Source: Escherichia phage 55
Direction: 5' to 3' (one strand)
Length of the DNA: 64,000 nucleotides
Sequence record: OQ599310
Part shown: piece after piece, positions 60,753 to 64,000 of the stretch
Layout: every line of letters begins with the position of its first letter
How positions within the stretch are numbered: position 1 is the first letter of the stretch
Made by a program: the position numbers and the translations under genes
Notes under the pieces: model-generated
Seen by the model: only the letters and a program-made list of their open reading frames with translations
What the model was told of the DNA's origin: nothing
The model's database searches: none

Positions 60753-61030
60753 AAACATATAGCGAATTTTTATCAGAATCTATTCTTAACGAAGCTACTG
60801 ACACATTTGCAACTAAGCTAGGTGCCGCTTTGGTTGAAGCCGAAAGTCTATTAGCACGTATTTCTGAACTTGCTAGTAAGATAGATACTCGCAAATTTGA
60901 GCGCACCAGTGATATCGTTAAGCTTGAAGCACTGTTGCGTATGTGCGATAAACCCGAAGAAATCGCTAAGAACGGCTCGCTGATGAAACAACGTCTTGAA
61001 AAATATATTTCAGGCGCTTCAGAAAAATAG
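60749..61030 (+). CDS. CTS-bearing internal-protein-like protein (94 aa; IPII/IPIII position)
   Basis: N-terminus [10 protein letters not shown]; ATGA overlap with e stop. Confidence 0.75.
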
Positions 61031-61032
61031 TG

Positions 61033-61062
61033 TTTACTTCCTCCAAGGGTTTTGATACTATA
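61033..61062 (+). promoter_or_regulatory. early promoter upstream of denV
   Basis: GTTTACT ... TGATACTAT. Confidence 0.55.
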
Positions 61063-61088
61063 CATCTATCAACTACTTGGAGGAAATT

Positions 61089-61502
61089 ATGACTCGTATC
61101 AATTTAACACTTGTTTCTGAACTGACCGACCAACATCTTATGGCTGAGTATCGTGAATTACCACGCGTATTTGGTGCAGTCCGTAAACATGTTCAAAATG
61201 GTAAACGTGTAAAAGATTTTAAAATCTCTCCAACATTTATCTTAGGCACAGGTCACGTAACATTCTTTTATGACAAACTCGAATTTTTACGTTTACGTCA
61301 AATCGAGCTAATCGCGGAATGTTTAAAACGCGGTTTCAAAATCAAGGACACGACAGTCCAGGATATTTCCGACATTCCTGTAGAATTTCGTAATAATTAT
61401 GTCCCGTCCGAAGCGTCCATTTCGATAAGTCAAGCACGCTTAGATGAAAAAATTGCTCAACGTCCGACTTGGTACAAATACTATGGTAAATCAATTTACT
61501 AA
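61089..61502 (+). CDS. denV: endonuclease V (pyrimidine dimer DNA glycosylase)
   Basis: [12 protein letters not shown]...[10 protein letters not shown] matches remembered T4 DenV; track start 61077 is TTG. Confidence 0.95.
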
Positions 61503-61509
61503 GGAAAAA

Positions 61510-61839
61510 ATGAAAACATATCAAGAGTTTATCACTGAAGTTACATTATCTGCGGAACAGAAAGCTGCTATCGAAGAAAGTAAAAATCCCAAAGTAACAT
61601 ATAAAGTAAATAGTAAAGGCGTTTTTGATGGCTTGGTTCAAGACCCTGAATTGAAAAAAGCTCTTTCTAAAACTAATGCGTACTTTGCTCCTAAATTTAA
61701 CACAGCAGGTGTACTTATTGGATTGGATGTATTCAACTCTAAAGGTGTTCTATCTAATGCCTTTGGTTATGCCGCTAACAAAATTACCAAAGCCGCATGG
61801 GAATCCAATACCAAACAAGCTCAAAAGCCTAGAGTATAA
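61510..61839 (+). CDS. CTS-bearing internal-protein-like protein (109 aa)
   Basis: MKTYQEFITE at internal Met after AAGGAAAAA RBS. Confidence 0.75.
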   Translation: MKTYQEFITEVTLSAEQKAAIEESKNPKVTYKVNSKGVFDGLVQDPELKKALSKTNAYFAPKFNTAGVLIGLDVFNSKGVLSNAFGYAANKITKAAWESNTKQAQKPRV

Positions 61840-62011
61840 TTCTTGTCTAATAAAGGGAAACGCAACCTCTCCTTATGAACGTCGAGTCCTCTAAGTGATG
61901 TACCTTTTCCAACCTGTAATAAGGTCGAGCGCAATGCGGTAATGGGTTTACATAGCGAGTCGAAGGACAATTCATGCGCCATGGAATGGCCCAAACCTTA
62001 AGAGAAATAAT

Positions 62012-62551
62012 ATGAGAACATTTTTAACTGGACCTTATCTATCCCTGATGAATGCTTTTACACACCATTCTGATGCTAGAGTAGAAGAAATTTGTAAGAA
62101 CGGTTATATCCCACCGTTTGAAGACGTACTCAAGCAGTACTGTACACTTCGTTTAGACGGCGGCCGACAATCAGGTAAATCAATTGCTGTGACTAACTTT
62201 GCTGCTAATTGGCTGTATGATGGTGGAACAATTATTGTTCTTTCCAATACTTCAGCTTATGCTAAAATTTCTGCTGACAATATTGAAAAAGAATTTTCTC
62301 GTTATTCTAGCGACGATATTCGATTCCGTTTATTTACTGATTCTGTTCGTAGTTTTATTGGCAATGAAGGTTCTAAATTCCGTGGATTAACGCTTTCTCG
62401 TATTCTGTATATAATTGACGAGCCTATTAAAGCTCCTGATATGGATAAGATTTACAATGTCCATATTAAAACAGTACAGTACTGCTGCAAAAGCAAATAT
62501 TGCATCGGCGGCAATGCTCGTCCTCAATTTTTTGTGATTGGAATGCAATGA
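62012..62551 (+). CDS. P-loop NTPase-like hypothetical protein
   Basis: Walker A GGRQSGKS and Walker B-like ILYIIDEP. Confidence 0.65.
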   Translation: MRTFLTGPYLSLMNAFTHHSDARVEEICKNGYIPPFEDVLKQYCTLRLDGGRQSGKSIAVTNFAANWLYDGGTIIVLSNTSAYAKISADNIEKEFSRYSSDDIRFRLFTDSVRSFIGNEGSKFRGLTLSRILYIIDEPIKAPDMDKIYNVHIKTVQYCCKSKYCIGGNARPQFFVIGMQ

Positions 62552-62856
62552 TGACCACTATTGAAGTTTTTGAATATTGTTATAACAGCCCAGTATGCAA
62601 TAAAAGGGCTCTTGTAGAAAATTACGAGATTTACCATTTTAAACCTAAACGATACCGTTTGACTAAAGGTCCGTTCGCGGGGCAGCAGGTTCTTTGTACT
62701 GCTCCTAATGCACGGTTGATGACTAGTATTCCGCATTTCAAAATGGAATTTATTGATGGACCATTTAAGGGATTAATCACTCAAAGTTTAATGGCGTTTA
62801 ATTCCGACCCATTTTTGATTAAAGAAAAAACTTGGATAAATTTATTTTCTAATTGA
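62548..62856 (+). CDS. hypothetical protein
   Basis: 102 aa from ATG overlapping upstream stop. Confidence 0.55.
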   Translation: MMTTIEVFEYCYNSPVCNKRALVENYEIYHFKPKRYRLTKGPFAGQQVLCTAPNARLMTSIPHFKMEFIDGPFKGLITQSLMAFNSDPFLIKEKTWINLFSN

Positions 62857-62862
62857 GGTTAT

Positions 62863-63225
62863 ATGAAAGCATATCAAATTCTTGAAGGTGCACATAAAGG
62901 CACTATTTATTTTGAAGACGGTACTCAAGCCCGGATTATTGTCTCTAAGACTTTTAAAGAAGACGCTATTGTAGACCCGGAAATTTTCTACGGTTTGAAT
63001 GCCCGTGAAATTGAAATTGAACATCAACCTAAAGTTAAAATTGAAGGTGGTCAACACCTGAACGTTAATGTTCTGCGTCGTGAAACTCTGGAAGATGCAG
63101 TTAAGCATCCAGAAAAATATCCGCAGTTGACCATCCGTGTATCCGGTTATGCAGTTCGCTTTAACTCTCTGACTCCGGAACAGCAGCGTGACGTTATCGC
63201 TCGTACCTTTACTGAGAGTCTATAA
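62863..63225 (+). CDS. autonomous glycyl radical cofactor (GrcA/YfiD-like)
   Basis: Glycyl-radical signature RVSGYAVRF; C-terminal half resembles enterobacterial GrcA; T4 is known to carry a YfiD homolog. Confidence 0.85.
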
Positions 63226-63449
63226 TGGCTAAATTGATTATAGAAGGGTCTGAAGATGTTTTAAAATGTTTTGCCGCCTGGTTTAGTTGCTCAGGCGAGC
63301 AATCATTCATTGAAGCATTTAGAATAGGTGATATTACTGGAAACTATCCGGCAACTGATATCACTGTACGTGGATATGGTATTAATGAGCCTATCCAATT
63401 GGTCGAATATGACCTTGCCACCGATGAGGAAATTCCTTATGTCGATTGA
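63225..63449 (+). CDS. hypothetical protein
   Basis: 74 aa; ATG overlaps GrcA-like stop. Confidence 0.55.
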   Translation: MAKLIIEGSEDVLKCFAAWFSCSGEQSFIEAFRIGDITGNYPATDITVRGYGINEPIQLVEYDLATDEEIPYVD

Positions 63450-63684
63450 AGATATTAAAGGCTACAAGCCACATACCGACGATAAAATCGGTAAAGTGAA
63501 CGCTATTAAAGATGCAGAAGTTCGATTAGGGCTTATTTTCGATGCCTTGGCGGAAGAAGCGTTGTCTGCGAATACTCCTGAAGCTTTGACAGCTTTGTCC
63601 CAATTGAACTGTGCTAAAGAACGCCTAAAGGAAGCTAGTATGTGGGCTTGTCGTGCGGTATTTCAACCAGAGGAAAAATACTAA
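63439..63684 (+). CDS. hypothetical protein
   Basis: 81 aa from [10 protein letters not shown]; track start 63328 is an extension. Confidence 0.55.
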
Positions 63685-63983
63685 TGGCTCAAATCCTATC
63701 AGGCTTTGGAACTCATTATGAAGCATCTCGACGCATAACTGAAAGCAATCCTTTTGGCCTTGTTCCGAAGCACAAGAAAATTCAAAGCCTTGATGACTTT
63801 GAGAATCGCCTATGGGCCCTCTTTAATGAGTACAAGGCATATCTGAAAGAAGACGCTGACGATTGTCTTGAAGAAGATGAGATTGCGTATTACGAACAAC
63901 GCCTTGAACAGCTCAAGAACTTCCACCAGGTTCGTGACGAAGTATCTAAAGCAGTTAAAAAGTTAATTCCTTTCAAAGAGTAG
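63684..63983 (+). CDS. hypothetical protein
   Basis: 99 aa from MAQILSGFG; TAATG overlap. Confidence 0.55.
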
Positions 63984-63986
63984 TTT

Positions 63987-64000
63987 ACTTCTCCTCTAGT
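63987..64000 (+). promoter_or_regulatory. start of another early promoter (truncated by window end)
   Basis: GTTTACTTCTCC matches the -35 region of the 52786 and 61033 promoters. Confidence 0.35.

Follow-up and report, generated by a model that had tools for sequence, protein, structure and literature searches.

Why a phage gene should match the gene of its bacterial host almost letter for letter over one half, and share only about every second nucleotide with it over the other, is the question raised by positions 62863..63225 (+) of the DNA of Escherichia phage 55 (sequence record OQ599310), of which a stretch of 64,000 nucleotides was analysed and is referred to here as the window. The gene encodes a protein of 120 amino acids (aa) of the GrcA type, a small glycyl-radical cofactor that acts as a spare part for oxygen-damaged pyruvate formate-lyase (PFL), and it is the ortholog of T4 vs.6, the product of which biochemical papers call Y06I. 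Both the gene and what it does were already known, and calling it grcA adds nothing new. The explanation that best joins the observations, and that can be adopted with considerable confidence, is that the phage supplies this known spare part from a gene whose radical-domain DNA has been overwritten from host grcA.

At the protein level, Gly_radical is the sole Pfam domain (E=2e-18, 67.3 bits against a cutoff of 22.2). The best match in the Protein Data Bank (PDB) is 6OWR, the nuclear magnetic resonance structure of the 127-aa E. coli GrcA/YfiD (E=2e-42 over residues 21-120), followed by PflB (E=3e-26), and PHROG 1209 (phrog_1209) is matched over its full length (E=9.1e-63; residues 1-120 pair with positions 1-121 of a profile of 121). 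In a BLASTP alignment with E. coli GrcA, 74/100 residues are identical (E=8e-53); residues 61-120 are 100% identical to GrcA 68-127, and G95 aligns with G102 of GrcA and G734 of PflB (residue numbering as in PMC12338860 and PMC8683613). The original prediction, made from the letters of the DNA, had described the gene as GrcA/YfiD-like, a description upheld by the 74% identity over 100 aa and by the 60 identical residues at the C terminus. A glycine loop that was not conserved had been named as the result that would speak against it, and alignment finds TIRVSGYAV intact and identical to that of E. coli GrcA. The supposed relation to T4 is likewise borne out by alignment, which identifies T4 vs.6 (NP_049730; NC_000866 63557-63919; RefSeq name GrcA) as an ortholog in a shared neighbourhood, with 94.2% aa identity over 120 aa. 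The suggestion of host derivation holds even for the DNA, a tract of which is nearly identical to E. coli grcA.

Compared codon by codon with E. coli grcA, the gene shows about 50% nucleotide identity up to codon ~59 and then switches abruptly, at 63041, to 97-100%. Three segments, all on the + strand, can be distinguished. The phage-type 5' half (62863..63040) encodes residues 1 to ~59, a diverged homolog of GrcA's N-terminal half, which is disordered, and is AT-rich (GC 36%, GC at third codon positions 24%). The host-derived tract of about 175 nucleotides (63041..63215) encodes the structured glycyl-radical domain (residues 61-117) and has a GC content of 46%, the whole window standing at 38%; within it, alignments place the glycyl-radical signature TIRVSGYAV (residues 90-98, 63130..63156) and the codon of the radical glycine G95 (63145-63147). 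The phage-type 3' tail (63216..63225) consists of the last three codons, GAG AGT CTA where E. coli has GAA AGC CTG, and the TAA stop. Identity of the tract to E. coli grcA is about 97.5-97.7% in the window, 99-100% in T4 and some of its relatives, and 100% in three IMG/VR contigs (L097, L098, L099). The four differences in the window (63069, 63111, 63127 and 63189) are all synonymous, as are all three in the tail, a sign of purifying selection, under which the gene stands.

The synonymous sites decide how the mosaic is to be read. When only codons with a conserved amino acid are considered and their synonymous differences from E. coli grcA are counted (Fisher test), 9/19 codons differ in the N-terminal half of the window gene against 4/54 in the tract (p=4e-4), and 10/17 against 0/53 in T4 (p=5e-8). 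Due to this asymmetry between the halves, protein constraint cannot explain the mosaic. No such 5'/3' asymmetry was found in thirteen bacterial grcA genes compared with that of E. coli. At C-terminal synonymous sites T4 and the other Tequatrovirus copy are nearer to E. coli than any of the thirteen, and the synonymous fraction of the window there (0.15) lies under the lowest bacterial value (0.19). The gene of the intact enzyme, pflB, was considered as the donor and rejected: the diagnostic residues, including a 12-residue GrcA-type segment where PflB has MNREMLLDAMEN, match GrcA and not PflB, and the donor is therefore grcA.

A neighbour-joining tree of the tract nests the Tequatrovirus-like and Mosigvirus-like phages with E. 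coli grcA, and in 500/500 bootstraps no other bacterium is nearer than E. coli. The transfer ran from host to phage, since E. coli grcA sits normally in the enterobacterial grcA tree and is free of the 5'/3' asymmetry. Among ten copies compared, Tequatrovirus-like and Mosigvirus-like genes diverge by 10.6% in the 5' half and by 2.4% in the tract, a between-genus value indistinguishable from that found within genera (2.0-2.6%). The tract is younger than the phage genera and was homogenised after they split. Each phage copy departs from the E. coli tract only at its own private sites. As the source of the four private differences of the window, an E. coli allele was tried and rejected: 63041-63225 is matched in all 5426 complete E. 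coli genomes, and the best identity is still 96.2%. The differences are either mutations of the phage lineage or the legacy of an unsampled donor.

A related observation comes from E. coli O157 typing phage 3 (L001 3864-4226), a Mosigvirus ~98% identical to the window. The two genes differ at 1 codon in the 5' half and at 8/59 C-terminal codons (tract and tail), all of them private synonymous sites. The numbers are small, and the contrast hints at independent conversions or at a locally raised substitution rate.

A second donor comes into view in phages of Klebsiella. Klebsiella phage vB_KpnM_GF (Jiaodavirus) carries the same phage-type N-terminal half, with 74% nucleotide identity to that of the window, and the last six codons of its gene are also phage-type. 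Its tract, by contrast with that of the window, groups with the grcA of Klebsiella, Raoultella and Pseudocitrobacter in the tract tree. A metagenome scan with a 38-mer of this tract matched four contigs, three of which (L177, L178 and L180) hold a complete grcA open reading frame (ORF) with a bacterial-type N-terminal half; the fourth match (L179) ends at the contig edge, where the N-terminal half is unreadable. In L178 the gene lies within a 531-kb contig in the synteny ung-grcA-...-rpoE-rseABC-lepA, and the grcA regions of L177 and L178 are closest to Klebsiella and Raoultella representatives (86% and 83%). The phage GF tract is 99.4% identical to the Klebsiella-like grcA of L177 (53/54 codons identical) and 87.7% to that of E. 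coli, whereas the window tract is 85.8% identical to the former and about 97.5% to the latter; the two bacterial genes share 88.3% identity over the same interval. With an E. coli-type tract and a Klebsiella-type tract on the same phage-type 5' half, sequence comparison shows that the tract was replaced from the host on at least two independent occasions. At least 95% identity is reached by 638 phage records for the E. coli tract and by 105 for the Klebsiella-like tract, and, among the matches listed, those above ~94% to the Klebsiella-like tract are Klebsiella and Raoultella phages, with Escherichia, Salmonella and Yersinia phages at 86-88%.

More distant lineages present another picture. Within the bacterial genes sampled, no host match at the DNA level was found for the copies of Pseudotevenvirus, Winklervirus, Krischvirus, T5-like, jumbo and Aeromonas phages, which keep the protein sequence and have DNA 15-30% diverged from every sampled bacterial grcA. 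The Winklervirus-type copies (Erwinia phage Virsaitis27, L085 1501-1872, and IMG/VR L102-L106) are peculiar in their C terminus, where ...TFTKGSNGY replaces the conserved ...TFTESL, and in an 11-nucleotide overlap with the next gene; their tract is ~25% diverged from all sampled bacterial grcA.

The origin of the other half of the protein had been misjudged. Residues 1-56 alone give no BLASTP alignment to E. coli GrcA 1-63, and the phage N-terminal half alone has no match in hmmscan against NCBIfam, where the E. coli N-terminal half scores 86.8 bits. These negative single-sequence searches suggested a foreign phage module, and the original prediction had also taken this half to be phage-specific; both views were overturned by profile-profile comparison. 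Aligned by hhalign, 15 phage N-halves and 66 distinct bacterial GrcA N-halves are related with a probability of 97.1% (E=6.9e-11, 60 columns, ~32% identity), and still with 79.8% (E=1.5e-5) when the 16 residues nearest the domain boundary are omitted. Conserved patches such as ARxIVxKxxFxED and REVxIExxPxV are aligned. On the evidence of these profiles, the N-terminal half is a strongly diverged, fast-evolving version of GrcA's own. Its fast evolution is attributed to disorder, which in YfiD extends over residues 1-60 (PMC8683613). In YfiD this half is dispensable for catalysis, but cleaved PFL is bound better in its presence, and the radical is installed about four-fold better (PMC8683613).

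In the simplest history, a phage ancestor long ago captured a whole grcA, which then diverged; later the radical-domain tract was replaced from the host, at least twice. The present gene is a chimera: its phage-type N-terminal half is old and evolves fast, and the DNA of its radical domain has been overwritten from host grcA. Homologous gene conversion during infection is the most likely process to have overwritten the tract, as far as the pattern allows it to be read; the bounds of the tract would be set by where homology remains, and the outcome would be a radical domain that fits host PflB and PflA exactly. That conversion from host to phage was repeated, each time with the grcA of the infected host genus (Tequatrovirus and Mosigvirus having the E. 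coli type, Jiaodavirus-like phages the Klebsiella type) and with the N-terminal half and the last codons left phage-specific, is a proposal towards which the evidence leans gently.

What such a protein would do for the phage can be described from its two characterized relatives. According to PMC8683613, E. coli YfiD and T4 Y06I, the latter validated since 2001, are the only two glycyl-radical-enzyme spare parts with experimental validation. Both receive a glycyl radical from the PFL-activating enzyme (PFL-AE) and restore the activity of O2-cleaved PFL in vitro (Knappe group; Wagner 2001, PMID 11444864, as reported in PMC8683613); the original prediction had ascribed the restoration of oxygen-damaged PFL to a T4 protein, in agreement with that account. 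The steps that follow were shown for YfiD and Y06I and are transferred to the window protein. Oxygen would cleave host PflB at the radical glycine G734, and the small GrcA-type protein would dock on the cleaved enzyme, its C-terminal domain substituting for the β-strand, glycine loop and helix that were lost. The radical would be placed on G95 by the radical-SAM enzyme PflA (PFL-AE), the activase of the host, and would abstract hydrogen from PflB C419 and so restore the conversion of pyruvate to acetyl-CoA and formate. The phage would need to bring its own GrcA because a T4-type-infected cell can no longer make one, and would express it from an early/middle polycistronic unit. The protein could in this way sustain fermentative production of acetyl-CoA and ATP in micro-oxic, gut-like conditions.

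Other functions have to be weighed against repair of host PFL. The Gly_radical domain is also present in NrdD, the anaerobic (class III) ribonucleotide reductase, and on this basis Nolan et al. (2006) suggested a role of vs.6 in nucleotide metabolism. The protein might then be a spare part for O2-cleaved NrdD, or else be acted on by, or work together with, NrdG, the activase of the phage. In two distant and mutually unrelated phages the homolog lies within the operon of the anaerobic reductase: the gene orders nrdD-grcA-nrdG in Salmonella jumbo phage Munch (L089 1177-3824) and nrdD-nrdG-vs.6-like-nrdC-nrdH in Aeromonas phage Ah1 (L094 367-3384) are in line with this idea. However, the radical domain is 100% GrcA and of the PFL type (PflB, E=3e-26), and the similarity between the GrcA-like protein of Munch and the adjoining NrdD does not extend past the radical loop (12/26 residues, E=0.046); the former could therefore not replace the C-terminal domain of NrdD. 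T4 Y06I, moreover, works with PFL-AE and cleaved PFL, and grcA adjoins neither nrdD nor nrdG in the window or in T4. The first ~49 kb of the window, if collinear with O157 typing phage 3, correspond to a part of that genome in which virion structural annotations prevail and neither nrdD nor nrdG is annotated. The NrdD spare part is rejected on sequence grounds, and a function in phage nucleotide metabolism as a whole is improbable. The adjacency in Munch and Ah1 is real, but may merely reflect co-expression: it suggests co-regulated anaerobic functions, or possibly activation by NrdG.

The protein might instead be a GrcA mimic that titrates host PflA or occupies PflB, and thereby redirects or damps host fermentation. 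A strongly diverged N-terminal half, the part of YfiD concerned with recognition of cleaved PFL, next to an identical radical domain would be compatible with such altered targeting or regulation. Yet the T4 protein, 94% identical, restored PFL activity in vitro, no evidence for inhibition was found, and an exact radical loop with every catalytic-domain residue kept is what repair needs and goes beyond the needs of a decoy, so that this role is more doubtful still than the one in nucleotide metabolism. It is least credible of all that the tract is functionless hitch-hiking host DNA, or an artefact of assembly or contamination, in an unselected ORF. The host-like codon usage and GC of the tract (46% against 36%) and its near-identity to E. 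coli DNA are what such an origin would produce, but the intact 120-aa ORF recurs with the same junctions in hundreds of independently sequenced phages, the T4 reference among them; the substitutions of the window tract are confined to synonymous sites, and distant lineages keep the protein despite their DNA divergence. This pattern of conservation, to which a frameshifted copy in contig L122 is the sole exception, effectively refutes it.

Against the preferred reading, in which a PFL spare part is supplied by the phage and its radical-domain DNA is renewed from the host, several points have to be set. The mechanism of replacement is deduced from its pattern, and whole-gene re-capture followed by phage-phage recombination is an alternative to conversion. 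Host-tracking is not universal: no phage exceeds 90% identity to the Salmonella grcA tract, and Tequatroviruses whose isolation host was Yersinia or Salmonella have a tract of the E. coli type. The match to the GrcA model of NCBIfam, TIGR04365, in which residues 18-120 pair with model positions 23-126, scores 159.1 bits (E=5.8e-47), slightly under the 170-bit equivalog cutoff, a curation threshold tuned on bacterial proteins. The shortfall is due to the diverged N-terminal half, and the gene is therefore classed with the GrcA-like proteins of the phage Vs.6/Y06I subfamily and not as a strict equivalog of bacterial GrcA. With its N-terminal half so diverged, the phage protein could bind or be regulated differently. 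Radical installation by PFL-AE and rescue of O2-cleaved PflB are inferred for the window protein from its 94% identity to Y06I and its 100% identity to the structured domain of YfiD. Since no paper on a vs.6 phenotype during infection was found in the searchable literature, the benefit to the phage likewise keeps the rank of an inference.

The reading frame and its signals are those of an ordinary phage gene. Exactly one ORF was found at 62863-63225 (+), running from an ATG start through 120 codons to a TAA stop and supported by the family matches; its residues 61-120 are the C terminus quoted in the original prediction. An ORF of 88 aa on the opposite strand (62842-63108), listed in the same place, is regarded as spurious, as it overlaps the well-supported grcA. 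The gene has its own Shine-Dalgarno-like sequence, GAGG (62855..62858, +), which as read from the sequence lies 4 nucleotides 5' of the ATG and shares nucleotides with the stop codon (TGA, 62854-62856) of the vs.7-like gene upstream. At the other end the grcA stop overlaps the ATG of the downstream gene (63225-63227) in the sequence TAATG (63223-63227), which makes translational coupling likely. The late-promoter motif TATAAATA is absent from the + strand between 52044 and grcA (~10 kb upstream). Within 60900-64000, a scan for sigma-70 promoters and terminators returned promoter-like sites at chance level (10 against 7.8 expected), and no Rfam match was found. The tight packing of genes at grcA fits an early/middle polycistronic unit, as in T4.

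The genome, judged by its nucleotide similarity, is that of a Mosigvirus-type T4-like phage. The 2 kb around grcA share 99.4% identity with Escherichia phage LH01 and ~98% with the Mosigvirus 'E. coli O157 typing phages', and these near-identical records already annotate the gene as grcA, autonomous glycyl radical cofactor. The same 2 kb are only 77% identical to T4, as the window is of the Mosigvirus type and T4 is a Tequatrovirus. The order denV-vs.8-vs.7-vs.6-...-regB-...-tk is nevertheless common to the window, O157 typing phage 3 and T4, with denV confirmed by Pfam. A tblastn search identified the gene in 1588 phage records, with a match of near full length in 1534. The carriers are T4-like phages infecting Aeromonas and many enterobacterial hosts, along with T5-like phages of Salmonella and with jumbo phages. 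Nolan et al. (2006) count vs.6 as one of eleven uncharacterised T4 ORFs that recur in every T4-like genome of their comparison. The broken copy mentioned above lies at 401-759 of L122 (IMG/VR UViG_2974754850), a 167-kb Jiaodavirus-like contig; it is frameshifted or truncated, and its protein stops after 49 residues, before the radical domain. Either the sequence is in error or the gene was naturally lost.

Several neighbouring features deserve mention. Two positions downstream of grcA, the gene at 63439-63684 (+) encodes an Acb2/Tad1 hairpin domain (PF24729, E=9e-18). It is presumably the counterpart of T4 vs.4, the anti-CBASS cyclic-nucleotide sponge Acb2. On that assumption an anti-defence gene probably shares an operon-like block with the metabolic helper grcA. 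The homologs of the two genes upstream of grcA (62012-62551 and 62548-62856, +) are labelled 'endoribonuclease RegB' in KP869101. No Pfam domain was found in either protein at E<=0.01, genes of the vs.7/vs.8 region are annotated as hypothetical in T4, and the RegB label is probably an over-annotation. A relatively GC-rich non-coding gap of 173 nucleotides (61840-62011) separates the vs.8-like gene from the vs.7-like gene where packing is otherwise tight. For this gap no Rfam match, no significant RNA fold (z=+0.92) and no convincing promoter were found; its minus strand holds two short ORFs (42 and 57 aa). Over the whole window, TATAAATA, the T4 late-promoter motif, occurs 19 times against 7.7 expected, a count reached in 0/100 shuffles. 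The majority lie on the minus strand within the first ~25 kb (e.g., 3270-24931), which correspond to the virion structural region of O157 typing phage 3, a distribution that fits a T4-like late transcription programme.

The DNA-level mosaic is the unexpected point in an otherwise known gene of ordinary function, and will be of moderate interest to specialists in phage evolution. It offers a clean, sharply bounded and domain-sized case of host DNA overwriting an old phage gene, involving at least two host genera, and it tells apart the portion of GrcA that needs an exact host match (the radical domain) and the portion left free to vary (the N-terminal half). If conversion is ongoing and selected, and not a neutral by-product of homology, such 'host-tracking' would keep the metabolic helper of the phage perfectly matched to host PflB and PflA. 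If the repeated conversion proposed here is true, the tract would be a built-in record of the evolutionary host of a T4-like phage, which suggests a simple sequence marker for the evolutionary hosts of Tevenvirinae. The conservation of vs.6 across all T4-like genomes compared argues, in addition, that micro-oxic host fermentation matters to gut phages.

Among known systems, the closest is T4 Vs.6/Y06I, a protein of equal length encoded at the same early-region position in the gene order given above. Its gene also agrees with that of the window in where the host-like tract begins at the 5' junction and in its phage-type last codons. Seven aa changes separate the two proteins, six in the N-terminal half and one in the radical domain (R72 in the window, H72 in T4), and the four private synonymous changes of the window tract contrast with a single change from E. 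coli in T4, which is non-synonymous. E. coli GrcA/YfiD (P68066; 6OWR; TIGR04365) is likewise a stand-alone glycyl-radical domain of ~14 kDa with the same radical glycine; the identical stretch covers nearly all of its structured domain (61-127), and the N-terminal halves are homologous at profile level. The phage protein, however, is seven residues shorter, and its gene is part of a phage polycistronic unit instead of being served by the host grcA promoter. The C-terminal glycyl-radical domain of PflB (PDB 1H16/2PFL, residues 696-759), the domain that the spare part replaces, aligns over 64 residues (E=3e-26) and shares an identical 13-residue loop, but belongs to an 85-kDa enzyme, whereas the phage protein is free-standing.

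For the mosaic itself, no description of a host-matched conversion tract was found in the searchable literature. A conceptual precedent is the intragenic recombination between host and phage that is said to have been seen in cyanophage psbA, by Zeidner in 2005 and Sullivan in 2006. There too a host metabolic gene carried by phages is reportedly exchanged patch by patch with the host copy, giving mosaics that break the phage phylogeny. The gene, the hosts and the phage group are different, and the exchange in grcA is limited to one sharply bounded tract the size of a domain, the other half of the gene being phage-specific.

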